In this document: in pieces, positions 2,715 to 64,000 of the stretch | How positions within the stretch are numbered: position 1 is the first letter of the stretch | How the letters are laid out: the number at the start of each line of letters is the position of its first letter | Assembly (NCBI GenBank): GCA_964476585.1 | Contig: CAYZBF010000002.1 | Location: forward strand, 66,354-130,353 | Reading direction: 5' to 3' | DNA length: 64,000 bases | Origin: an uncultured bacterium | GTDB taxonomy: Bacteria; Hydrothermota; UBA3072 | Notes under the pieces: model-generated | What the model saw: only the letters and a program-made list of their open reading frames with translations | Told to the model about the DNA's origin: nothing | Databases searched by the model: none | Translations under genes and position numbers: made by a program

Positions 2715-3953
2715 TTAAAAGAATTCTTCAAACCATTGCTTCATACGTTTTAATACTATGTCAAACATGCTTTTCCCTTTAAGTTCTTCGAGTTTCCCTC
2801 CGGTATGTAAAGCGCCATATTTTATAAGGCCTACAGCTGTAGCAAATGAAGGATCAGAGACCGTTTCTTTAAGACCGGTAATATGCTCTGATGGAATTCC
2901 TATCCTTACAGGCAGAGTGAATATATCCTCCGCTAACCCTGCTATACCATCTAACATAGCAGTACCGCCTGTCAGTATTACACCGGCACTCAACATATTA
3001 TAAAGTGAATCTTCAGAAAGTTCTCTGTGTGCTAGTGTCAGTATCTCTTCAATCCTAGGTTTAACTATCTGCTGTAACAACTCACGGGACACCTGCTTAT
3101 TACCTCTTCCCGAAAGACCTGGAACTGTTATCATGTCATTTCTATCCTTCTCAAGGATTTCCTTCACTGTAGCATATTCAAGTTTAATCCTCTCAGCTTC
3201 CTTAGGAGAAGTCCTGAGTCCCACTCCGATATCATTAGTCACATTTTCCCCCCCAAGACCAAATACCGAGGTTTTCCTGAGGCTTCCATTGTAAAAAATT
3301 GCCATATCAGTAGTTCCACCACCTATATCTACAAGGATAGCTCCCACTTCCTTTTCTTCCTCTGAAAGAATAGAGTAAGAAGAAGCAAGGGGTTGTAGGA
3401 CGATATCGCTAACTTCATAGCCTGCTTTATTCACACACTTACATATATTCTTTGCTGAAGTTACAGCTCCTGTCACAATAACAACATTAGCTTCTAGACG
3501 TTGCGAGAACATTCCTAACGGATCTCTAATCCCACCCTGTCCATCAAGTATGAATTCAGTCGGTATAATATGGATCACCTCTCTATCTACAGGAAGCGCC
3601 ATGGATTTTGCACTCTCCAGTACGCGATCAACATCTTCCCGAGTAACTTCATTGTCTACTCCAGTAACTGCGACTACACCACGGCCCTGTATATTTCTAA
3701 TGTGGTCCCCTGCAATACCTGTATAAACCCCTTTGGCCTCCTTGCCGGCCATCATCTCCGCCTCTCTCATCGCTTTGAGGATGGATTGCACCGTCTTGTC
3801 TATATTTATAACTACCCCTTTACGAAGACCCTCCGAAGGGTATTTACCCACTCCCATAATATTAGCCCCCTCATCATCAACCTCGGCTACCACAGCTGCT
3901 ATTTTAGTGGTACCAAGATCTAACCCCACCACAATATCCTTATCATCATTCAC
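2715..3953 (-). CDS. ftsA: cell division protein FtsA (actin-like ATPase)
   Basis: N-terminal VVGLDLGTTKIA and actin-fold motifs. GTG start with AAGGAGGT 5 nt upstream. Confidence 0.9.
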   Translation of the reverse strand: MNDDKDIVVGLDLGTTKIAAVVAEVDDEGANIMGVGKYPSEGLRKGVVINIDKTVQSILKAMREAEMMAGKEAKGVYTGIAGDHIRNIQGRGVVAVTGVDNEVTREDVDRVLESAKSMALPVDREVIHIIPTEFILDGQGGIRDPLGMFSQRLEANVVIVTGAVTSAKNICKCVNKAGYEVSDIVLQPLASSYSILSEEEKEVGAILVDIGGGTTDMAIFYNGSLRKTSVFGLGGENVTNDIGVGLRTSPKEAERIKLEYATVKEILEKDRNDMITVPGLSGRGNKQVSRELLQQIVKPRIEEILTLAHRELSEDSLYNMLSAGVILTGGTAMLDGIAGLAEDIFTLPVRIGIPSEHITGLKETVSDPSFATAVGLIKYGALHTGGKLEELKGKSMFDIVLKRMKQWFEEFF

Positions 3954-8853: not shown

Positions 8854-10138
8854 AGATATCCCTTACTGCTCTCTTAAAATCCTCTCCCCTTTCAGCAAAA
8901 TTTTCATAAAGGTCAAAACTTGCGCCACCGGGGGAAAGCATAACCTTATTAATTCCGAAATCCTTGGTAAGCCTAACAGCATCTATTATTGAGGAAGCTA
9001 TTTTGTATCGATTAAATCCAGCGTCTTTTAAAATTCTCTCTATGGGAGCGCTGGATTCCCCAAGTAGAATAACTTGGGCTGCCCACTTCTGAATCGCCTC
9101 TATTATTGGAGCAGTATTTTCCACCTTCATCCTACCCCCCACTATCACGCAAGAGTCTGGAAATGCCTCAAGGGATTTTGCAAAAGCTATGGGATTCGTA
9201 CACATTGAGTTATTGATTATATGCAAGTTTTCGTTCTTTAAAACTGTTTCCATCCGGTGTTCCATCCCTTCAAACGAACGAATTCCCGATTGCACCTCTT
9301 CTCTGGACAGTCCCAAGACATTGCCTATAAGAGATGCAACCATTCCATCCTCAACAAATATATCTCCAGGAATGAATAGATCAGTTAAGGAAAAGACTAC
9401 TATACCCTCTTTGTCTCTTACCTCTTCCCCGATATAGTAGATATCTGCTTTTCTCCTCATTGAAAAAAATAGAATTTTAGAGTGTGTATCTATAGAAGAC
9501 AAACTCTCATCATCCATATTTAGGATGGAATAATCAGAATATGTTTGATTGGCTAAAATATTCAGCTTTGCATTCCTGTAATCCTCAAAGTTCTTATACC
9601 GGTCTAGATGATCCGGGCTTATATTTATAATCGCGGAGATTTTGGGGTGAAAATCAAGAATTCTCTCAAGTTGAAAGGAACTAACCTCTAACACTGTTAC
9701 GGTAGATTCATCACTCATCAGAACAAGTTCGCTTAATGGAACACCAGGATATATATTACCTCCCAGCAAGACCTTTTTGAACTTTTTAGATTGAGACAGA
9801 ATATGCGAAGTAAGTGCAGCCGTTGTGGTCTTTCCGTTAGTTCCTGTGATGGCAATCATCTTGCCTTTTAAGTGCCGGGAAGCAAATTCCAATTCTCCCA
9901 TAATTGGGATACCTCCTTCCCGTGCTTTTTCCAATATTGGAATGGAGAGAGGTACACCAGGAGATACAATGAGAAGATCCATTTTAAGCAACTCTTGCGA
10001 ATGATCGCCAACTTCATTTGGATAAGGGATATTTGAAAGAAATTCATTCTTCTCACTAATAAAAGGAGTTTCACCTAACCTATCTATTAGTCCGGCAACT
10101 GCCTTCCCACTTCTACCATATCCAATAACTCCTATCAT
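8843..10138 (-). CDS. murD: UDP-N-acetylmuramoylalanine--D-glutamate ligase MurD
   Basis: Mur ligase family protein (GTNGKTTT), between mraY and ftsW. Confidence 0.9.
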   Translation of the reverse strand: MIGVIGYGRSGKAVAGLIDRLGETPFISEKNEFLSNIPYPNEVGDHSQELLKMDLLIVSPGVPLSIPILEKAREGGIPIMGELEFASRHLKGKMIAITGTNGKTTTAALTSHILSQSKKFKKVLLGGNIYPGVPLSELVLMSDESTVTVLEVSSFQLERILDFHPKISAIINISPDHLDRYKNFEDYRNAKLNILANQTYSDYSILNMDDESLSSIDTHSKILFFSMRRKADIYYIGEEVRDKEGIVVFSLTDLFIPGDIFVEDGMVASLIGNVLGLSREEVQSGIRSFEGMEHRMETVLKNENLHIINNSMCTNPIAFAKSLEAFPDSCVIVGGRMKVENTAPIIEAIQKWAAQVILLGESSAPIERILKDAGFNRYKIASSIIDAVRLTKDFGINKVMLSPGGASFDLYENFAERGEDFKRAVRDIYGK

Positions 10139-17182: not shown

Positions 17183-17940
17183 TTATCAACCCCCTGATAA
17201 TGGCTGGCTAACAATATATCCTCCACTTCTCCCCACTTATCCCCACAATTTTAGAGCAAAAATACAGTTTTGTCAAGGGGTAAAGTGATTTTTTTCTCTT
17301 TTAAAGGACAAAAAAGTTAAGAAGAAATCGAGAATCGTCCCACTTCATTAAAAAAAATATATTTAAAAATATAGGTTCATTCGATTTATAGCTGGATTTT
17401 AAACCTACTGATTCTTTACCAGTGCATTTAATAAACAAAACATATTTTATATCTTTGTTATGAATTAAGTATCGACAACGATTTTCGATACTTCAAATAA
17501 CTTGTAATCCTACAAATAAGAAGTAAGTACAAAGCGTGAGCCAGTTCTCTAACGTCTAATCAAAAACGTCTACAGTCAGAGCATTTTTAAGGACGTTCTA
17601 CTTGGCGTATTTCAAGGCATAGTTAAACATTACAACCATTTCCCCATTCATTTCTTCTCTATTTTAGGTATTTGAAAATATCCTCACGCAAGCACTTGAC
17701 TTTTCTTATATTTACTTTAAATTCAAGTTGATGTTAGGCCGTGTAAAAAAGAGTGTTAAAAGGGTTTAGCAGAGGAATAAGTTATTTGGAAATAGGTGCA
17801 TACCATCTGGATTTAGCAATTATCACGAAATATCGGATATAAAAAGCAATGCGCCAAAAAATGTTAAATTGTTTGATTTCCGACTGTATTCGGTTCCAAG
17901 CTGAAGGACAGTATGGAGATTACACAAGGAGGTTAGAGTA

Positions 17941-18222: not shown

Positions 18223-18322
18223 GATAAATGCTAAATATCGAAGCGCCATAAAGATCATAGCTCTTTTAGAGTCTGATTAGGATTCCTTCTATACCCTCGT
18301 ACTTGATTAAAAATGGCAAATA

Positions 18323-18514
18323 ACCTGGGTTATATGCTGGGAGGTTCACGCCTCCCAGCATTAGGGTCATTGGTTGCGCGCCAAAAGTCAAGAGTCAGGG
18401 TTTAACAGCAGTTTATAGCCTTTAGAGAAGCGATCCGGTGGTTCGCTGGGCCTTCTGTCTCCGGTTTACGGTTATACTATGGTTCAACATTCACGGACGC
18501 CATAAATCCCAGGG
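18323..18514. ncRNA. candidate structured RNA of unknown class (~190 nt, GC-rich, 13-bp closing helix)
   Basis: CCTGGGTTATATG (18323) pairs with CATAAATCCCAGG (18502), 11 of 13 positions. There is an internal perfect hairpin CTGGGAGG-ttcacg-CCTCCCAG (18337-18358). No ORF, and local GC is clearly above flanks. Confidence 0.3.
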
Positions 18515-18540
18515 AATATTAGCCGAATAGAATATGTTTT

Positions 18541-19464
18541 TTAACCGACGGAGTCAACCATCTTTCTTATAGCTCTGATGTGCTTTGGTGTTGTTCCACA
18601 GCAACCTCCAATGATTGACACACCTAAAGAAACTAATTCTTTTGCTTTTTCTGCCATAAACTCTGGTGTCTCGGGATAAACAACAGTATTTCCTTTTATC
18701 TCTGGAATACCTGCGTTAGATTGAATGATAATTGGAAGATGGCTAAATTCCCTGAATTCCCTGGCTATCTTTATCATGTTATCTATACCGTTTCCACAGT
18801 TCGAACCTATGATATCGGCTCCTGCATTTGTAAGTCCTTTTACAGCTTCTTCTATATTTATACCCATCACAGTATAAAAACCTCTGGGGATGGGATCAAA
18901 TGTCATTGTTGCAATAACAGGGGTTGACGACGAAACAGTTTTCGCCGCTTTAACGGCAATTGTTGCCTCTCTCAAATCGGTCATTGTCTCTACGCATATA
19001 ATGTCAACGTCTGCACTGATGAGTGCCTTCATCTGTCTTTCAAAACTATCGTACATTTCGGAATCTGATGTATCCCCATAAGGCTCCAGGAGTTTTCCAC
19101 TTGGGCCGCAGGAACCAGAGATATAAGCGCATTCTCCTACGATTTTTCTTACAGCAAGGACAGCATTTCTGTTTATTTCCTCTGTTTTATCCGCAAGCGA
19201 ATAAAACGAAAGCTTCAAGGGAGACGCTCCAAAGGTATTGGTCTGAACTATATCAGCCCCTGCCTCAAGATAAAGACTGGCAATCTCATGAAGGATCGGG
19301 AGACGTGTAAGGTTAAAAGATTCCGGAGGTTCCCCTGCCCCAAGACCACGTTCCATAAGCATTGTTCCCATTGCTCCATCAGAAACAAGTATCTCGCCAT
19401 TCTTCAATCGCTTGAGAAGTCCTTCCACCCTACCTCCCATTTTTAAAAGTAACCGCAGATACAC
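18541..19464 (-). CDS. homocysteine-binding (MetH N-terminal-like, PF02574) methyltransferase module with intact Zn-site cysteines
   Basis: ILVSDGAMGTM, EAGADIVQTNTF, SNCGNG and IIGGCCGTTPKHI align with the MetH Hcy domain, including the three Zn-ligand Cys. The ATG at 19440 is the probable start. Confidence 0.8.
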   Translation of the reverse strand: MYLRLLLKMGGRVEGLLKRLKNGEILVSDGAMGTMLMERGLGAGEPPESFNLTRLPILHEIASLYLEAGADIVQTNTFGASPLKLSFYSLADKTEEINRNAVLAVRKIVGECAYISGSCGPSGKLLEPYGDTSDSEMYDSFERQMKALISADVDIICVETMTDLREATIAVKAAKTVSSSTPVIATMTFDPIPRGFYTVMGINIEEAVKGLTNAGADIIGSNCGNGIDNMIKIAREFREFSHLPIIIQSNAGIPEIKGNTVVYPETPEFMAEKAKELVSLGVSIIGGCCGTTPKHIRAIRKMVDSVG

Positions 19465-19536
19465 ACAGATGTTCGCAAATACAATTACTTCTAAAATTCA
19501 TTTAATCTGTGTCTATTTGTGTTCATCTGCGGTTAC
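19450..19536. repeat. palindromic intergenic element (TAACCGCAGAT ... ATCTGCGGTTA) between corrinoid-protein and Hcy-module genes; carries dispersed motif TGTGTTCATCTGCGG
   Basis: 10-bp perfect arms 19451-19460 and 19526-19535; the 14-mer is shared with 44949. Confidence 0.6.
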
Positions 19537-23242: not shown

Positions 23243-23276
23243 TGGAAAAGTCATGCTTTTCCCCCAATATTTTTTC
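23243..23276 (+). terminator. putative intrinsic terminator after tetR (GGAAAAG-tcatg-CTTTTCC + T-run)
   Basis: 7-bp stem and T-rich tail, seen directly. It overlaps the start of a dispersed-repeat copy. Confidence 0.35.
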
Positions 23277-23340
23277 TCTGTGCTCTCTGCCTACCCCGTA
23301 GGGAGGAACCGACCGTATCGAGGTATCTCTGTGGCAAAAA
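23275..23340. repeat. dispersed element copy (CTCTGTGCTCTCTGCCTACCCCGTAGGGAGGAACCGACCGTATCGAGGTATCTCTGTGGCAAAAAG)
   Basis: The 27-bp core is identical (reverse-complemented) to 59809-59838. The 3' part resembles the reverse complement of 44701-44722. Confidence 0.65.
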
Positions 23341-23379
23341 GTCAACTTGCAAAATGGAATTTTAACAATATATTGGACT

Positions 23380-23772
23380 ATGGTGCGCTGGATAGGTCTT
23401 GATATCGGAAGTAAATGGACTGGGATTGCAATGACCGATGAGTTGAACATTATAGAGCCCAGGGATACGATAAAAACTGAAGACTTAATCAAGGAACTGA
23501 AGAGATACAAGCAGGAATATGAGATAGAAGGTTTGGTAGTGGGATTTCCTTTGACGACAAAGGGAAAGGTAGGAGAGAGAGCAAAAATGGTGGAGAGGAT
23601 AAAAGAGGAGATACAGATCGAATTAAACCTTCCTGTCCATCTCCATGATGAACGCTTTACAACAAAAGAAGCGATGGAAATAGCTTTGGAAATAGGTAAA
23701 GCAAAGGATAAGCGACTACTCGATAGAATAAGTGCAACGTTAATCCTAAAGAGGTTCTTTGAAGAGAATTAA
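23380..23772 (+). CDS. ruvX: Holliday junction resolvase-like RuvX/YqgF
   Basis: MVRWIGLDIGSKWTGIA N-terminus; RNase H-like YqgF family. Confidence 0.8.
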   Translation: MVRWIGLDIGSKWTGIAMTDELNIIEPRDTIKTEDLIKELKRYKQEYEIEGLVVGFPLTTKGKVGERAKMVERIKEEIQIELNLPVHLHDERFTTKEAMEIALEIGKAKDKRLLDRISATLILKRFFEEN

Positions 23773-24745: not shown

Positions 24746-24850
24746 TCGCTACACCCCATTGAAAAAGTATTTGGACGCAGATTAACGCAGAAAAATGGGT
24801 TAATAGGAAAATGAGTAAATGGGTGAATGAGGTGGTCTATTTAAACAATT

Positions 24851-24888
24851 ATCGAGGATCGAGCATCTAGCATCGAGAATCCAGTATC
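24851..24888. repeat. 5.4 x 7-bp tandem repeat ATCGAGN
   Basis: ATCGAGG ATCGAGC ATCTAGC ATCGAGA ATCCAGT ATC, seen directly. Confidence 0.7.
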
Positions 24889-24959
24889 TTTCACTGAAAC
24901 CTAAAGTTGTATTTTTTATCTGTATAGATCAGTGTCTAAAATTGGGGTTGGGAATTTTG

Positions 24960-31264: not shown

Positions 31265-31614
31265 TGGTGGAGGCGGCGGGAATCGAACCCGCGTCCGAAA
31301 TGGCTGTTTGAAAGCGTCTACATGCTTAGTGGTTGTTTTTCTCTCGCCTTCCCAACACCCAACCACAGGACTAAGAAAGGCTATGCCAGTAATTTTTCAT
31401 CCACAATCCCCTGGCAATGATTGCAGACTATTCTCCTTCTATGACACCCTACAAGAGAGTAGGAGAAGAACTCTCTCGCGGACGGGCAGCTAAATTAAGC
31501 TGCCAGAGCGTAATTAACGTTGCCGTTTATATTTATGACCACAGTTTTTCGAGTTATGGCAGCTCGGCATGCAACTTTCAATCCAATTCACTCCGTCGAG
31601 ACCTTTTCGCCCCC
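31265..31614 (-). ncRNA. ssrA: tmRNA (ssrA)
   Basis: The minus strand begins GGGGGCGAAAAGGTCTCGACGG and ends GGTTCGATTCCCGCCGCCTCCACCA, a tRNA-Ala-like T-arm and acceptor. The internal tag reading frame is ...GGC AAC GTT AAT TAC GCT CTG GCA GCT TAA (GNVNYALAA*). Confidence 0.9.
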
Positions 31615-31657: not shown

Positions 31658-31771
31658 GGAGACAATAGTCTTCAGTCTTTAGTCATAAGTCCTAAGTTAT
31701 TTTTTCTAAAACTTACAATAAATTTTTAAATTTGACTACTGACTATCGACTATAGACTGAAGACTATCTCC
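31658..31771. repeat. long imperfect palindrome (GGAGACAATAGTCTTCAGTCT ... AGACTGAAGACTATCTCC) built from inverted arrays of 7-bp GACTNNN units
   Basis: Arms at 31658-31678 and 31754-31771. Heptads AGTCTTC AGTCTTT AGTCATA AGTCCTA on the left; GACTACT GACTATC GACTATA GACTGAA GACTATC on the right. Confidence 0.75.
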
Positions 31772-36287: not shown

Positions 36288-36341
36288 ATTCTAACTTTTC
36301 TTTAACTTTTAAAGCTTCCGACTTTTTATTCTTCAACTAAT

Positions 36342-36369
36342 GACATTCGACTACTGACTAATGACTCAT
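36342..36369. repeat. 7-bp tandem repeat array GACATTC GACTACT GACTAAT GACTCAT
   Basis: Seen directly; shares GACTACTGACTA with the array at 31734. Confidence 0.65.
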
Positions 36370-44655: not shown

Positions 44656-44707
44656 ATTAAAAAATAGGGGCCTTGTGCCCTTTTCGCAAGGTGTCTCTTT
44701 TTTATTG

Positions 44708-44962
44708 CCACAGAGACACGGAGGGTAGAGAGAAGAAATTTTTTAAGCCGCGATCCCTGCACGGTTCAATATAAATATTTATTAATTAAAGGGTTCAAGC
44801 GTATATATGACCGGAGACAGAGGTTGGGTTTTAGGTATGGAGTCCTAGGTCTTTGGGTTTAGAAGGTTGTGAAATAGGCGGATTTAGTGTGGAGAACTAA
44901 GACCTAAAATCTAACACCTTCCAGAGTGTCTTTGTGGTGAATTTTATCTGTGTTCATCTGCG
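44708..44962. repeat. dispersed element copy with termini CCACAGAGACAC ... GTGTCTTTGTGG, plus TCTGTGTTCATCTGCG tail
   Basis: Termini are inverted repeats with 1 mismatch. The 16-mer GTGTCTTTGTGGTGAA also occurs at 60085, and TGTGTTCATCTGCG also at 19518. The interior holds phased 7-bp units (TTTTAGG TATGGAG TCCTAGG TCTTTGG). Confidence 0.6.
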
Positions 44963-45744: not shown

Positions 45745-45813
45745 AAATCCTAAATCCCAATCCCTAAATTTCGCATTCTACTAATGACTATAGACCTCAG
45801 ACTTCGGACTACA
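45745..45813. repeat. 7-bp phased repeats (AAATCCT AAATCCC AATCCCT ... GACTATA GACCTCA GACTTCG GACTACA)
   Basis: Seen directly. Confidence 0.6.
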
Positions 45814-52687: not shown

Positions 52688-52793
52688 AAATCTACATCAG
52701 TATAGTAGAGTTAGAAAATAACCACAGAGGCATAGAGAACACAAAGTAGGCTTCAATTGTATGCTATTCTTGGCATAAGAAAGGAGGTACATT

Positions 52794-59280: not shown

Positions 59281-59389
59281 TCAGAAAACTACATTTTACA
59301 CAAAATTTTAACCTCTTAGATGTATACAATTAGTCATTTCTGACTTTAGTTCTTGACAGATTAAGATTTTTTTTTATAATTATATTAAT

Positions 59390-59462
59390 GGTGAGATAGC
59401 TCAGTAGGTAGAGCACGGGACTGAAAATCCCGGTGTCGGCGGTTCGATTCCGTCTCTCACCA
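59390..59462 (+). tRNA. tRNA-Phe (anticodon GAA)
   Basis: Cloverleaf folded by hand: acceptor GGTGAGA/TCTCACC, D-arm GCTC/GAGC, anticodon loop CTGAAAA, T-arm GGCGG-TTCGATT-CCGTC. CCA is not encoded. Confidence 0.9.
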
Positions 59463-59481
59463 TTTCTTTTTGGAGGTCATA

Positions 59482-59787
59482 ATGAAATGGTTCATCTTTT
59501 TCGTTTGTCTTTTATTTCTTTCCGGGTGTAAAGAAGGCAAAGAAGCCGTCAAGGAAACAGATAAAATTGTGAAAGACTATTCAAAAGGGTTGATAGAAGC
59601 ACCAAAAAAGACAAAAATTTTAACAGAGATTGCAACCATCAGGCAGGCATTAGAGATATACAGAATTGAAAATGGTGAATATCCAGAGAGTCTAAGTGTT
59701 CTCCCTATTAAGATCAAAGAGATTGATAAATATCAATATGACAGTGAATCTGGTAAAGTAAAAAGCAAACATTATCCAAATCTATAA
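59482..59787 (+). CDS. small lipoprotein with pseudopilin (GspG)-like C-terminal motif
   Basis: LFLSGC lipobox. ...ALEIYRIENGEYPESLSVL resembles the GspG/ComGC YxxDNGxYP block, but there is no prepilin leader. Confidence 0.45.
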   Translation: MKWFIFFVCLLFLSGCKEGKEAVKETDKIVKDYSKGLIEAPKKTKILTEIATIRQALEIYRIENGEYPESLSVLPIKIKEIDKYQYDSESGKVKSKHYPNL

Positions 59788-59797
59788 GGGAAAAATT

Positions 59798-60098
59798 ACA
59801 CAGAGACACCCCGATACGGTCGGTTCCTCCCTACGGGGCAAGCAGAGGACACAGAGACAGAGAATACAGAGAAATATAAATGTTTAAAATTAAAAAATTC
59901 TATAAGAAGAACTTTGTGAACTCTGTGTCTTTGCGAGAGATCAAAATGATAGTAGGGTTTTTACATTTTTCATTTTACATTTTTAAATTTGCATTTTACA
60001 ATGAAGCTTAGATACTTTCTTTGTGACCTTTGCTTGCCCCGTGTAATAGAAACTATTTGGGGAATACTTATTATTACACAGGGGGTGTCTTTGTGGTG
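59798..60098. repeat. dispersed element copy (~300 bp) with termini ACACAGAGACACCCC ... GGGGTGTCTTTGTGG and a 27-bp core shared with 23293-23319
   Basis: CCCCGATACGGTCGGTTCCTCCCTACGGGG (59809-59838) is the reverse complement of the 27-mer CCCCGTAGGGAGGAACCGACCGTATCG at 23293. Termini match those at 44708/44926 with the same single mismatch. Confidence 0.65.
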
Positions 60099-60119
60099 AA
60101 AATATATTAAGGAGGGGAA

Positions 60120-61187
60120 ATGGTAAAAAGAGTTCTTGTTATAAATCCAGGTGCAACTTCTACAAAAATTGCTTTATTTGAATCAAATAAGGAAATAAAA
60201 AATAAAAAGATAGAATATTCGGCCGATGAACTAAAAGGATTTTCTAAATCCACTGACCAGATTGAGTTCCGATGGAAGGATATTAAAAAGACAATTCTGG
60301 AATGGGAGATAGATAAAGTTGATGGAGTCGTAGGAAGGGGAGGATTATTCCATCCACTTGAAAGCGGTATATACAGAGTTAATGATAAAATGGTTAGGGA
60401 CATAACAGATGGCAATATGGTAGCAGAGCATATCTCAAATATTGGAGCGATACTTGCGCGGAAAGCCGCAGAAGAGCTCTCCAGTGATGCATTTATAGTT
60501 GATCCGGTATCAGTGGATGAATTTGATGATGTTGCACGAATCTCTGGAATGCCTGAGATAGAAAGAAAAGCCCTTCAACATACTCTAAATATTAAACAGG
60601 TGGTGAGGAAGGCCTGCAAGGAATTGGAGATAGAAGAAAGCGAGGCAAACTTTGTAGTGGCACACTTAGGCAGCGGAATCTCTATATGTCCCATAAAGAA
60701 CGGACGTATTATTGATGCAAATAATGCTATCGAAGAAGGGCCATTTTCACCAGAAAGAAGCGGTGGACTCCCTGCAACTTCGTTCTTCAAATTATGCTTT
60801 TCAGGAAAATATGAGAAAGATTGGATAAAAAAAAGATTGAAAGGTAATGGTGGCTTAGTTGCATATCTTGGGACCAATGATCTCAGAAAAGTAGAAGAAA
60901 TGATCCATAACAATGATAAGAAAGCAGACCTTATATATAGAGCTATGGTGTATCAGACTGCAAAGGAGATAGGTGCAATGTCTGCTGCCCTGGGCATGAA
61001 ACCGAAAAGTATTATACTTACAGGGGGATTAGCCTATCAGAAACGTTTTGTAGAAGAGCTTTGCGAACGAATCGCATTCTTTACAGAAAAAATTCTCATT
61101 TATCCTGGAGAAGATGAACTCACCTCCATGGCTGATGCAGCATTCAGAGTTTTTAGTGGGAAAGAAAAAGTAAAGGAATACGAATAA
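60120..61187 (+). CDS. buk: butyrate kinase
   Basis: Acetate/butyrate kinase family with Buk-type N-terminus (VLVINPGATSTKIALF). Confidence 0.85.
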   Translation: MVKRVLVINPGATSTKIALFESNKEIKNKKIEYSADELKGFSKSTDQIEFRWKDIKKTILEWEIDKVDGVVGRGGLFHPLESGIYRVNDKMVRDITDGNMVAEHISNIGAILARKAAEELSSDAFIVDPVSVDEFDDVARISGMPEIERKALQHTLNIKQVVRKACKELEIEESEANFVVAHLGSGISICPIKNGRIIDANNAIEEGPFSPERSGGLPATSFFKLCFSGKYEKDWIKKRLKGNGGLVAYLGTNDLRKVEEMIHNNDKKADLIYRAMVYQTAKEIGAMSAALGMKPKSIILTGGLAYQKRFVEELCERIAFFTEKILIYPGEDELTSMADAAFRVFSGKEKVKEYE

Positions 61188-61260
61188 ATTAAGAGTTCAA
61201 GTTAAATTATTAAATTATCAACCGCAGATAGACGTAGATTAGTCGCTTCGCTCAAATGAA

Positions 61261-61366
61261 GACTTTGGACTTCGGACATCGGACTTTTTTATACAAACTC
61301 AATAAACCCAGAACTCCGAACCCAGAACTCAGTACTCCGAACTCAGATCCCAGCACTTACTCCTTA
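61261..61366. repeat. 7-bp tandem repeat arrays (GACTTTG GACTTCG GACATCG GACTTTT; then GAACTCC GAACCCA GAACTCA GTACTCC GAACTCA GATCCCA ...)
   Basis: Seen directly. Confidence 0.7.
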
Positions 61367-62540: not shown

Positions 62541-62641
62541 ACAGTATAAAATAACAATATTTGTAAAATTTCAAGGCCTCAAGCGTTTTAATATATTTTC
62601 TTATATTCTTAATTCTAAATGATCAGCTAAAAATTAACTCG

Positions 62642-62750
62642 GTACTCCGAACTCAGAACCCAAAACTAATCCTAAACTCCAAATCCGGACTCCTAATCAC
62701 TTACCCCTTAATCCTTGCTATTACTTATTTCTTCTCTCATAATCCTAACT
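62642..62750. repeat. imperfect direct repeat of 61338-61405 (GTACTCCGAACTCAGA...CTTAATCCYTGCTATT...TCTTCTNATAATCCT), also with 7-bp phasing
   Basis: A 16-mer is identical; downstream blocks are similar, with a ~27-bp insertion. Confidence 0.6.
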
Positions 62751-62806: not shown

Positions 62807-63235
62807 ATGAAAGTTGAAGTAAGACAGGTTGATGGTTTAACACTTTTAGCTAAAGGTAAATCCGGACACTGGATGATCCTTGATGGTTCAAAAGAATTCG
62901 GGGGAAGTGAGGCAGCCGCAAAGCCCATGGAACTTTTTCTTATTTCCCTTGCAGGATGCACTGGTATGGATGTAATCTCTCTCCTCAATAAAATGAGAGT
63001 TGAATTCCAAGATCTAAGGGTAAATGTCGAAGCAGAGAGAAAGGATGAACACCCAAGGGTTTTCACGTCTATAAAACTGGAATACATTGTCTATGGGGAT
63101 AATATAGACGAGGAGAAATTAAAAAAAGCGATTAATAAATCGCAGGAGAAATATTGTGCAGCTTCTGCTATGTTAAAAAAGTGTGTTCCTATCACCCATA
63201 CATATAAGGTGATACAAAGAATTAATAGCCACTAA
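62807..63235 (+). CDS. OsmC/Ohr family protein
   Basis: OsmC fold with the conserved Cys pair region (LAGCTGMD ... CAASAM). Confidence 0.8.
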
Positions 63236-63257
63236 GGCAGAGAGAACACAAAGAAAA

Positions 63258-64000
63258 ATGGACGAAGATAGATTTACAGAGAGAACAAAAGAAACTCTAA
63301 GTATTGCACAATCCTCTCTATCTAAGTTTAATCACACGGAACTTACGCCACTTCATCTTTTATATGGACTCTTGGGCAACCCAGAAGGTGTAGTTCCAAA
63401 TATCTTAAAGGATATGGGGATAAATCCAGATCAGGTGAAGAACAAAGTTATTGATGAACTTGACAAATTACCTAAAGCTTATGGGGGAACTCTTCAAGCC
63501 TACATATCTTCTGGAGCAAAAAGTATTCTAGATAATGCCTGGGAAGAAGCAAGAAGACTGAAAGATAAATACATAGGCACAGAACATATTCTTCTCGCTC
63601 TAACCGAGGATAGAGGAAAAGCAGGGGAAATCCTCTCTGCATTCGGTATCTCTGAAGAAAATATATATAACTCTCTTAAGAATGTGCGCGGAGAGAAAAG
63701 GATAGAAGAACCTGATGCTGAGAGTAAGTATAAAATCCTTGAAAAATACACTAGGGATCTTACAGAGTCAATAGGGGATCCTGTAATAAACAGAGAGAAA
63801 GAAATAAAGAGGGTAATGCAGATACTCATAAGAAAGACAAAGAACAACCCTGTTCTTGTTGGGGAAGCAGGTGTAGGGAAAACTGCGATTGTTGAAGGAC
63901 TCGCCCAGAGAATAGTGGGGGGTAAGGTTCCAGACTTATTGAAGGATAAAAGGATTCTGGCCCTTGATATCGGAGGACTCATTGCAGGAACCAAATTTAG
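63258..64000 (+). CDS. clpB: ClpB-type AAA+ chaperone, N-terminal part (continues beyond window)
   Basis: Clp N-domain repeats and the first Walker A ([17 protein letters not shown]). Not in the ORF track because there is no stop in the window. Confidence 0.85.

Follow-up and report, generated by a model that had tools for sequence, protein, structure and literature searches.

What are the short inverted repeats that face each other across the gap between a lipoprotein gene and buk, at 59798-60098 of a stretch of DNA from an uncultured bacterium of the Hydrothermota (UBA3072): the ends of a transposable element, sites for a host protein, RNA signals, or parts of a repeat family without a dedicated function? 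The stretch, 64,000 nucleotides long (contig CAYZBF010000002.1, positions 66,354 to 130,353), is hereafter called the window, and all coordinates given without a locus name (L numbers, for public loci) are its own. An earlier note on the window had proposed a dispersed family resembling miniature inverted-repeat transposable elements (MITEs) or repetitive extragenic palindromes (REPs), with two copies of one element at 44708-44939 and 59798-60098, and with a 27-bp core that is identical at distant loci. The dispersed and non-coding character of this family, the frequent inverted pairing of its members and their insertion or deletion between relatives all hold, whereas the picture of a 300-bp MITE with simple terminal repeats does not: the interiors of the two supposed copies are unrelated, only arrays of ~12-35 nt are shared between them, and the supposed termini are in fact the outer repeats of two independent inverted array units. 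That these units form a real dispersed family with turnover by insertion and deletion (indel) seems to us very probable. That the family is a non-coding mosaic, unstable or mobile and serving no dedicated function in the host, similar to REPs and bacterial interspersed mosaic elements (BIMEs) as well as to MITEs, is the interpretation that we favour, with some reserve.

The repeat unit and its hairpin module

Each unit of the family is a polar array of ~35 nt with the form (TTCAC)-CACRRAG-N1-2 x3, in which every repeat occupies 8-9 nt. Often, a GC-clamped hairpin module of 37-63 nt, CCCC-hairpin-GGGG-CARG, interrupts the second repeat, always at the same point (ACA^CAGAG). The full grammar, which was obtained by aligning two copies in the window, units A and B, and then adding a third related stretch, unit C, is (TTCAC) CACAGAGACA - CCCC - (hairpin) - GGGG - CARG - CAGAG - (G)ACACAGAG; when CCCC...GGGGCARG is removed, three tandem repeats, CACAGAGA-CACAGAGGA-CACAGAG, remain. 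Unit B, at 59791-59859 on the forward strand, consists of a three-repeat CACAGAG array with a module of the first of the two main types described below (CCCCGATACGGTCGGTTCCTCCCTACGGGG-CAAG); it begins 11 nt after the stop codon of a 105-aa gene, and extra CAGAG repeats continue to ~59875. Unit A, at 23273-23341 on the reverse strand, is a solitary array with a type-1 module, and lies between a TetR-family gene and ruvX, directly upstream of the -35 element of the ruvX promoter. Unit C, at 60016-60103 on the reverse strand, combines a three-repeat CACAAAG array and TTCAC with a type-2 module of 53 nt (60032-60084, reverse strand; GCTTGCCCCGTGTAATAG...ATTACACAGGGG on the forward strand), which folds at -19 to -20 kcal/mol (z = -4.1). 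This unit ends 16 nt, and its match to the pattern 24 nt, before the ATG of buk.

The similarity of A and B extends over 76 nt at 82% identity, and is thus longer than the 27-bp core that was first noticed. The core itself, CCCCGTAGGGAGGAACCGACCGTATCG, is present in exact copies at 23294-23320(+) and 59812-59838(-), and 100 shuffles gave no match; its identity stands, and only its coordinates, previously given as 23293-23319 and 59809-59838, were shifted by 1-3 nt. It is not the core of a MITE, being instead a separate hairpin module set inside an array; the modules of A and B are identical over 27 nt, and those of B and C differ.

When written as a strict, structured pattern, the grammar matched the window at three places (A 23285-23333(-), B 59799-59847(+) and C 60028-60095(-)) and its shuffles at none. 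This count is circular, because the pattern was written from those three copies; independent support comes from 73 further strict-pattern matches in public contigs, copies beyond the window that the earlier note had suggested looking for. Since the pattern prescribes the flanks that it includes, their conservation is built in; this does not apply to the TT(C)AC leader or to the ACACAGAG repeat that follows, both of which recur nonetheless. A covariance model of the unit, built from 18 type-1 copies and run on the window, recovered A, B and C at 48-84 bits (83.8 bits for A; 84.2 bits, E = 4.5e-17, for B; 47.7 bits for C) and five array-only copies at 13-22 bits.

Over all loci (70 copies), the units are placed with a distinct polarity. 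The TTCAC side lies at a median distance of 64 nt from the nearest open reading frame (ORF), at most 60 nt in 28 of 62 copies, whereas the inner side faces the interior of the gap at a median of 267 nt from an ORF (within 60 nt in 4 of 53). The gene that adjoins the TTCAC end terminates there in half of the cases and starts there in the other half, and an inverted partner array was found 106-362 nt away for at least 13 copies other than B and C. Within the window, CACRRAG has a density of 2.64/kb in intergenic and 0.30/kb in coding DNA, a nine-fold difference. In the type-1 modules of L040 (1517-1573) and L045 (6101-6157), the 3' boundary of the module is duplicated in tandem (...CTACGGGGCAAGC-GGGGCAGGC-AAAG), which hints at how the ends of modules might be processed.

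Gain and loss among relatives

Relatives of the source genome were gathered through homologues of Buk and MltG, the nearest named one being Candidatus Stahlbacteria (MltG 76% identical). In L024 and L025, whose Buk is 81% identical to that of the window, the site of unit C is an uninterrupted three-repeat array, CTTTGTGACCTTT directly followed by GTGTCTTTGTGG, and pairwise alignment revealed 53 extra nucleotides in the window (60032-60084) exactly at this site, with both flanks ~90% identical. The empty site (L024 9949-9983) still reaches 31.6 bits with the covariance model. Unit B, on the other hand, is kept at the orthologous place (L024 6697-6765), where 39 of 39 positions from the module through the 3' flank are identical and the surrounding DNA has diverged. 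In the more distant L027 (Buk 71% identical), the whole 330-nt gap is absent, and the stop codon is followed by 8 nt and the ATG of buk.

Similar differences were found elsewhere in the window. Upstream of ruvX, L080 (Stahlbacteria E29_bin14) has an array without a module, CTCTGTGCTCTCTGTGACAAAAA, and the window has the same string split by the type-1 module of unit A, while L081 and L082 have no array. L080 and L081 lack a palindrome at 19.45 kb, described below: in them a single nucleotide separates the stop codon from the ATG (TAAgATG and TGAgATG), whereas the window shows the palindrome (88 nt) together with a ribosome-binding site, GGGAGG, that is new, and with GTG as the start codon. Array D, a module-less array between B and C, has orthologous counterparts in L024 and L026 whose repeats are homogenised (CGCAAAG x3 in L026). 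L024 has a different array at the place of the array at 52715 and an unrelated 123-nt gap where the window has that at 63222-63256, and at other orthologous gaps the array is likewise replaced by unrelated ones. These alignments indicate that the positions of the units turn over fast while their sequence stays constant, and that the 53-nt module is gained or lost as a precise block without evident duplication.

The promoter-like sequence beside unit A, TTGCAA-17-TATATT, is conserved in four genomes (window 23337-23383; ~3590-3630 in L080, L081 and L082). The ATG of ruvX follows 5 nt after its -10 box, which suggests a leaderless ruvX mRNA.

Occurrence in other genomes

The strict pattern matched 21 loci in species-representative genomes, with 3-4 matches in representative metagenome-assembled genomes (MAGs), as well as 52 metagenome loci. 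By their labels, the MAGs with genome matches belong to WOR-3, Stahlbacteria, Cloacimonadota, Desulfobacterales / Desulfatibia / Thermodesulfobacteriota and Armatimonadota; contigs of 24-52 kb are the basis for separating WOR-3/Stahlbacteria from Desulfobacterales. In a Thermodesulfobacteriota MAG (L015/L021), gaps are packed with chained modules of the same grammar, and the same 71-nt module occurs there in two left contexts.

The strict pattern had no match in viral contigs, and a BLAST search with the B unit (59791-59870) returned nothing in plasmids and, in phages, one weak and partial chance match of 30 nt; a phage or plasmid origin was rejected on these grounds. A known RNA family was rejected as well, since at the gathering thresholds of Rfam the window yielded only a transfer-messenger RNA (tmRNA) and tRNA, and since lax thresholds, applied to 59700-60200 and to nine type-2 loci, brought only chance-level matches. 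The tmRNA is at 31265-31614(-) and has the tag GNVNYALAA.

The lipoprotein-buk gap and the inverted ends

Unit B stands at one edge of the lipoprotein-buk gap and unit C, inverted, at the other; together they form a foldback at 59791-60103, so that the gap does have terminal inverted repeats as a MITE would. The outer arms are 59799-59812 and 60085-60098, and the second arms 59833-59860 and 60015-60042 (28 nt, 86% complementary). Array D (59910-59943, reverse strand, oriented as C; CGCAAAG-A-CACAGAG-TT-CACAAAG, 13.1 bits) pairs with the tail of B in the fold. As RNA, the B-C gap folds at -99.1 kcal/mol, compared with -64.05 +/- 5.05 for shuffles (z = -6.94), and the two strands fold alike (z ~-6.3 to -6.7), as dyad symmetry of the DNA would predict. 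Strong folds were also found in the gaps at 19.45 kb (z = -4.8 to -7.6) and 31.6-31.9 kb, and not in most others. A promoter-like sequence, TTTACA-17-TACAAT, lies between arrays D and C at 59974-60002(+), agrees with the consensus at 10 of 12 positions and is conserved in L024; as this promoter-like site is upstream of C, unit C is probably within the 5' untranslated region (UTR) of buk.

The inverted pair at 44.7 kb is composed of two array-only copies. The first, at 44701-44735 on the forward strand (CACAGAGA-CACGGAGGG-TAGAGAG; 18.7 bits, E = 0.048), is 46 nt from the start codon of uvrB, and the same empty form, TTCACCACAGAGACACGGAGTTCACAGAGG, occurs in L015 at ~2469-2503. The second, at 44908-44962 on the reverse strand, starts 6 nt past the stop codon of an Ala_racemase_N-family gene and reads TTCAC-CACAAAGACAC..., preceded by a CRCAGAT-type CGCAGATGAACACAGAT; its match to the model (44908-44944, 14.7 bits, E = 0.4) is marginal. 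As had been reported, CACAGAGACAC is present at 44709 and 59799, both pairs show the same G/A difference between this arm and the reverse complement, CACAAAGACAC, and a shared 16-mer, GTGTCTTTGTGGTGAA, which includes the TGAA after the termini, is exact at 44926 and 60085.

These shared ends, with the same mismatch and the same TGAA, speak for a classical MITE family, in which 59798-60098 and 44708-44939 would be two copies with terminal inverted repeats, moved by a DDE transposase encoded elsewhere. The strong B-C foldback and the absence of the whole gap in L027 suit such a family too, and elements with the same kind of ends do behave as MITEs in Desulfobacterales. An element of ~266 nt was found in Desulfobacterales metagenomes at one locus in L029 and L074 and at a different locus in L076, with longer and shorter variants in L061 and L006. 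It has a module-bearing array at one end and an inverted three-repeat array at the other, its ends being GTAATAGTTCAGCC.../...GGCTGAACTTGTAC, the left one also GTAATAGTTCAGCCACAAAG.... L076 is flanked on both sides by GTCAATTG, and the flanks ATAAAAT / ATAAAAC of L006 are a possible direct repeat; L029 and L061 have none. An interior shared between different loci, as expected of a MITE, is thus seen in L029/L074 and L076, and this comparison indicates that units of the family bound a true MITE in at least one lineage. In the window, however, the B-C interior is unique, B and C carry different modules, and neither interval has a convincing flanking duplication, nothing beyond AT-rich chance similarity being found where target-site duplications were sought. 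The 44.7-kb arms are only 11-12 nt long, with marginal scores and folds no better than those of shuffles (z = -1.1 to -1.9). Array-only and solitary units (A, 52715 and 63222) are a further misfit for a two-ended element, and a search for an autonomous relative with the same ends around a transposase gave, judged from the arrays themselves and not from the ORFs between them, no inverted array pair 0.7-4 kb apart that stood out as enclosing a candidate. A classical MITE family is accordingly an improbable account of the window.

The surroundings of the gap merit description in their own right. The window has a tRNA-Phe(GAA) gene at 59389-59463(+), and the order tRNA-Phe, small gene, buk is kept in L024 and L027. 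In two relatives, the same gap holds a restriction-modification (R-M) cassette with an N6_N4 methyltransferase and a HinfI-like gene (L024 7175-9548 and L026 19-3163). The cassette sits between the B and D arrays, at a place orthologous to ~59900 in the window, and is bordered on both sides by a partial duplication of the D-array region; the arrays may act as recombination hot spots. On the 3' side of the cassette, a non-coding stretch of ~250 nt (agcatatatgcttcgg...ttgctatcgcaaaacatc...) is conserved between L024 (~9590-9830) and L026 (~3190-3440) and is absent from the window.

Hairpin cores and possible host functions

The public matches comprise 66 distinct copies, which fall into two main core types. 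Type 1 (41 copies), CCCC-RRTAC-(12-14 nt)-YTAC-GGGG, is conserved in sequence, with lineage-specific variants; the pairs of its stem are mostly invariant, one pair shows double changes, and another is an A-C mismatch in 12 of 18 sequences. Type 2, which includes unit C, has the form CCCC-R-GTKRAAT-A-(small stem, often with a TTC loop)-ATTYMAC-GGGG, and occurs in the compensatory sets GTGAAAT/ATTTCAC, GTGGAAT/ATTCCAC, GTTGAAT/ATTCAAC and GTTAAAT/ATTTAAC. In an alignment of seven type-2 sequences, 98.9% of the cells were paired and 4 of 13 pairs had double changes, which was reached by none of 500 shuffles. In longer variants, the loop itself contains another hairpin. Type 2 has hardly any G-U pairs, and both of its strands fold equally well; selection on the DNA, or on both strands, is therefore favoured over selection on an RNA from one strand. 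Type 1 shows a small bias of folding toward the CTCTGTG strand, among sequences that are related to one another. The conserved unpaired tetranucleotide beside the stem is CARG/CYTG; type 2 has no GTAG, which in type 1 occurs only within the region of the stem. When the three frames of the core were read by eye, they did not suggest codon-like variation.

Stems that are nearly all Watson-Crick and fold equally on both strands fit recognition at the DNA level, and this agrees with a second alternative, in which the arrays are bound by a host protein, either nucleoid-associated or a global regulator, and the hairpin modules are secondary. Three tandem repeats, in inverted pairs at variable distance that in some cases bracket promoter-like AT-rich DNA, would suit such a protein, as would the ~10-nt period of the CRCAGAT type of array, and there is a precedent in Geobacter metallireducens, for which the caption of Additional file 8 gives the sites as TCTCCGTS(Y) x3 (PMC2700814). 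However, relatives with 65-81% protein identity do not keep the arrays in orthologous gaps, the neighbours of the arrays are unrelated housekeeping genes, and some of them overlap stop codons or lie between coupled genes; moreover, no binding protein is known and the Geobacter proposal is putative. We hold this explanation to be quite unlikely.

It has much the same low probability that the units are cis-acting RNA elements selected by the host, i.e. intercistronic stabiliser or processing hairpins, 5'-UTR regulators or factor-dependent terminators. Several positions would be appropriate to such roles: units occur 8-64 nt after stop codons or just before ribosome-binding sites, C is probably in the buk 5' UTR, and the 19.45-kb palindrome is inside an apparent operon. 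The compensatory changes of type 2 and the slightly better folding of type 1 on the CUCUGUG strand point the same way. Nevertheless, the two orientations relative to transcription are about equally frequent, the scarcity of G-U pairs in type 2 and the lack of an Rfam match even at lax thresholds speak against an RNA function, and units are present or absent before the same genes among close relatives. Unit A, furthermore, lies upstream of a promoter and not in a leader. The statement of the earlier note that most of the copies sit in 5' leaders applies to C and to the arrays at 52715 and 63222, and fails for A, as well as for B, which follows a stop codon.

Other arrays in the window

Besides array D and the pair at 44.7 kb, two array-only copies were recovered. 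The one at 52715-52749 on the forward strand (CCACAGAGG-CATAGAGAA-CACAAAG; 21.9 bits, E = 0.009) is 45 nt before the ATG of a TPR gene and downstream of a conserved promoter-like stretch that contains TTGACT; its repeat is 87% identical to 63224-63253. The other, at 63222-63256 on the forward strand, has three repeats (20.2 bits), overlaps the stop codon of an OsmC gene and ends 2 nt before the ATG of clpB. This ATG, following the array at 63222-63258, has no canonical Shine-Dalgarno sequence.

A sister type of array has the repeat CRCAGAT with a period of ~10 nt, and is found at 44946-44962 and in the palindrome mentioned above. The latter, at 19449-19536, consists of two inverted CRCAGAT-type arrays (z = -4.8, and -5.6 and -7.6 in further folds), and spans the junction from the stop codon of a B12-binding gene to ~10 nt before the ribosome-binding site of a homocysteine (Hcy) S-methyltransferase gene, essentially as previously placed (19450-19536, at the junction of the corrinoid and Hcy-module genes). 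Among the fragments listed earlier, TGTGTTCATCTGCG is present at 19518 and 44949 as given, while AGAGAACACAAAG and ACAGAGACAGAGAATACAGAG exist at slightly different positions (52734 and 63241 instead of 52741 and 63244, and 59851 instead of 59865, respectively); judged by the model and the grammar, every listed fragment belongs to the repeat family. The CCTTG...CAAGG hairpin upstream of uvrB is also real, although it lies at 44671-44691, just outside the interval 44708-44939 in which it had been placed. It corresponds to a GC-rich hairpin at 44670-44692 with T-runs on both strands, which abuts a AGAGACAC repeat directly upstream of uvrB and is terminator-like on the forward strand.

Intergenic DNA of the window has a 7-nt periodicity (lag 7 = 0.331, lag 14 = 0.318, lag 21 = 0.309, background ~0.28). 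It also contains unrelated degenerate heptamer arrays (GACTANN, GAACYCA, ATCGAGN, AATGRGT and GGACTTY), at 31665-31704 / 31728-31767, ~24795-24890, 36320-36366, 45775-45796, 61255-61285, 61305-61357 and 62636-62667. Some of these are in inverted pairs (fold z ~-6), and none is conserved in the relative with 81% identical Buk. Replication slippage, by which the arrays would be long simple-sequence repeats with a heptamer bias and neither mobility nor function, could draw on this periodicity, on the many unrelated arrays, on the homogenised repeats of L026 and on the heptamer excess in bacteria (Mrazek 2007, as summarised in PMC4679880). It is hardly credible, however, and is already contradicted for the module-bearing units: a sequence as complex as theirs, with 49 nt and >85% identity between distant lineages, cannot arise by slippage, which also leaves the fixed insertion point of the module and the MITE copies at different loci unexplained. 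The arrays of the family are short (3-7 repeats) and degenerate, as against the near-perfect repeats of the short tandemly repeated repetitive (STRR) type, and the module-bearing unit is complex. Two ORF-poor stretches of the window, 17183-17940 (758 nt) and 18223-18540 (318 nt), have no ORF of at least 80 aa, no Rfam match and folds of z ~-2 to -2.5.

Search for a moving enzyme

The genes flanking the window units are those that had been guessed, i.e. a TetR-family gene and ruvX, uvrB, buk, and a B12-binding gene beside the homocysteine S-methyltransferase gene, and no transposase is encoded by the elements, as the earlier note had it, or near these units. Among public loci, no transposase was found in the 25 most frequent of the 221 Pfam families matched by 148 ORFs within 3 kb of copies; this result covers those 25 families, so that singletons could escape, and 56 further ORFs were outside the scan. 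A motif scan for HUH...Y detected one REP-associated tyrosine transposase (RAYT), at L059 2528-3523, 195 nt from a type-2 module (81.3 bits against NF047646, above the NCBIfam cut-off of 80; Y1_Tnp + Bac_DnaA_C, a DnaA-type helix-turn-helix domain).

Five loci of this RAYT family were examined: that of L059, L083 3001-3954, L084 566-1519, L086 2604-3593 and L087 3001-3990. The repeat GGGGTCAGGCTT..CTTATTG is found near the gene, mostly upstream, in four of the five (L059, L083, L084 and L086), L087 being without an upstream copy, and all five genes end in AAGCCTGACC(CC) with the stop codon inside. Since the flanking repeat is a different one (GGGGTCAGGCTT/AAGCCTGACCCC) and L083-L087 contain no module grammar, the L059 protein was rejected as the cognate enzyme. 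It was the only RAYT met in 80 loci, and the IS200/IS605-type enzyme that had been thought of was not found there. The RAYT-like family is itself large, with >7000 homologues, mostly in Desulfobacterales, and represents a REP-RAYT system distinct from the family studied here.

Relation to known repeat systems

Bacterial MITEs such as Correia/NEMIS, ERIC, RUP and Nezha are well known, as are the Drosophila FB foldbacks, whose inverted ends hold tandem short repeats. The present family is like them in being non-coding, in its length of 100-360 nt with inverted ends, in its insertion into gaps and its hairpin folding, in the tandem-repeat ends typical of FB and in one clear flanking repeat (L076). 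It differs in that the interiors in the window are unique, the ends occur alone or as arrays only, the module is nested in an end, and no parent insertion sequence is known. REPs and BIMEs, including REPINs and GTAG/CGTC palindromes (PMC3733652, PMC3116915), are likewise short extragenic palindromes with a GC-rich stem and an unpaired tetranucleotide at the end; they form mosaics in alternating orientation that fold into larger structures, lie between co-directional or convergent genes, often after stop codons, and encode no gene. In the family studied here, the tag is CYTG, located 5' of CCCC on the CTCTGTG strand, and is neither GTAG nor CGTC; REPs have no counterpart of the three-repeat direct array in which the palindrome here takes a fixed place; no RAYT flanked by the same repeats accompanies it; one core type is conserved in sequence and not in pairing; and the spread covers WOR-3/Stahlbacteria and Desulfobacterales instead of one genus.

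The 'class 2 predicted global regulator binding sites' of Geobacter metallireducens (Aklujkar et al. 2009, PMC2700814) are, according to their caption, three tandem TCTCCGTS(Y) repeats; the authors interpreted them as putative sites for IHF/HU. The reverse complement of this repeat is CACGGAGA, and a matching CACAGAGA-CACGGAG occurs at 44709-44723. Compared with that caption, both systems have three repeats including CACGGAG, inverted pairs (106-362 nt apart in the present family) and an intergenic location; no hairpin module is mentioned in the caption, and the Geobacter family was regarded as specific to one genome. The small dispersed repeats (SDRs) of Nostoc, of 21-27 nt (Elhai et al. 2008, cited through PMC3116915 and PMC5861425), are similar as very small, hairpin-capable insertions at specific short contexts, and, together with the cyanobacterial STRR heptamers TAACTGA (PMC4679880), as residents of heptamer-rich intergenic DNA with suspected horizontal spread. 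The sequences and host phyla are different in these cyanobacterial accounts, and the modules described here are of 37-63 nt, in the context of a CACRRAG array, with degenerate arrays.

Earlier reports exist of intergenic DNA rich in heptamers and of TCTCCGTS(Y) sites that are paired and have three repeats each (PMC2700814, PMC2996986, PMC4679880), and tagged palindromes and REPINs are well described (PMC3733652, PMC3116915). In the literature searched, the core and flank strings were not met in a bacterial context in any paper. Neither there nor in Rfam does there appear to be a description of modules set within arrays and tagged by CYTG, of orthologous sites that are cleanly filled in one genome and empty in another, or of a near-identical 49-nt unit across distant anaerobe lineages.

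Interpretation

In the interpretation that we favour, a mosaic repeat family without a dedicated host function, the array would be the base part and the hairpin module the second part of the system. Units tend to lie with their TTCAC end to a gene boundary, often in inverted pairs that make the gap a foldback. A DNA enzyme acting in trans, with the array and/or the hairpin as its recognition site, could spread the units and keep them uniform, and it would be because of such a proposed enzyme that the sequence is constant across lineages and the positions are not. Insertion that depends on a hairpin and leaves no duplication would resemble the single-strand chemistry of HUH/Y1 enzymes (RAYT or IS200-type), although we consider it unlikely that an enzyme of this particular kind is responsible. 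Any effect on the host would be incidental: a co-transcribed pair would fold the RNA into a long stem with the gap looped out, and unit C would add a stable hairpin to the buk 5' UTR, which could alter mRNA processing, stability or coupling. In E. coli, the protection of upstream mRNA by REP/BIME sequences is established.

Several points weigh against this interpretation. No target-site duplication is visible in the window, and the flanking direct repeat is clear only in L076 and possible in L006. No cognate enzyme was identified, the only RAYT seen being flanked by another repeat. The direction of the 53-nt indel is unproven, as hairpin-mediated deletion gives the same picture. The type-1 stem is weakly supported, and its core may be a protein site and not a hairpin. 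Some of the phylum labels come from short MAG contigs, where binning errors could be responsible, and copies of the source genome were counted in its 64 kb (three module units and ~5 array units). Finally, many unrelated heptamer arrays also pair in inverted orientation, which one sequence-specific enzyme would not explain.

A bolder extension of the mobile-repeat interpretation is possible, though we regard it as doubtful. The hairpin modules could be mobile micro-insertions that home, without duplication, to one fixed point of the array and are moved by a hairpin-recognising enzyme. This enzyme would be shared horizontally among WOR-3/Stahlbacteria, Desulfobacterales and other anaerobes; the arrays would serve as landing pads and, when paired, as the ends of foldback MITEs. 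The whole would then be a two-layer parasitic system, and its modules would be among the smallest mobile insertions.

The units make long intergenic hairpins appear and disappear, both between coupled genes and in 5' UTRs, and they may mark hot spots for the entry of cassettes, as with the R-M cassette in the same gap of two relatives; they will also confuse assembly, binning and the prediction of non-coding RNAs in such MAGs. As mere selfish filler, the family would be a further example of REP-like repeats, of modest importance. If it is mobile, it would represent a compact, sequence-defined repeat system with a nested hairpin-in-array design in poorly known anaerobic phyla, and the enzyme that moves it could then be sought, for instance, by comparing the presence of the module with that of gene families across genomes.

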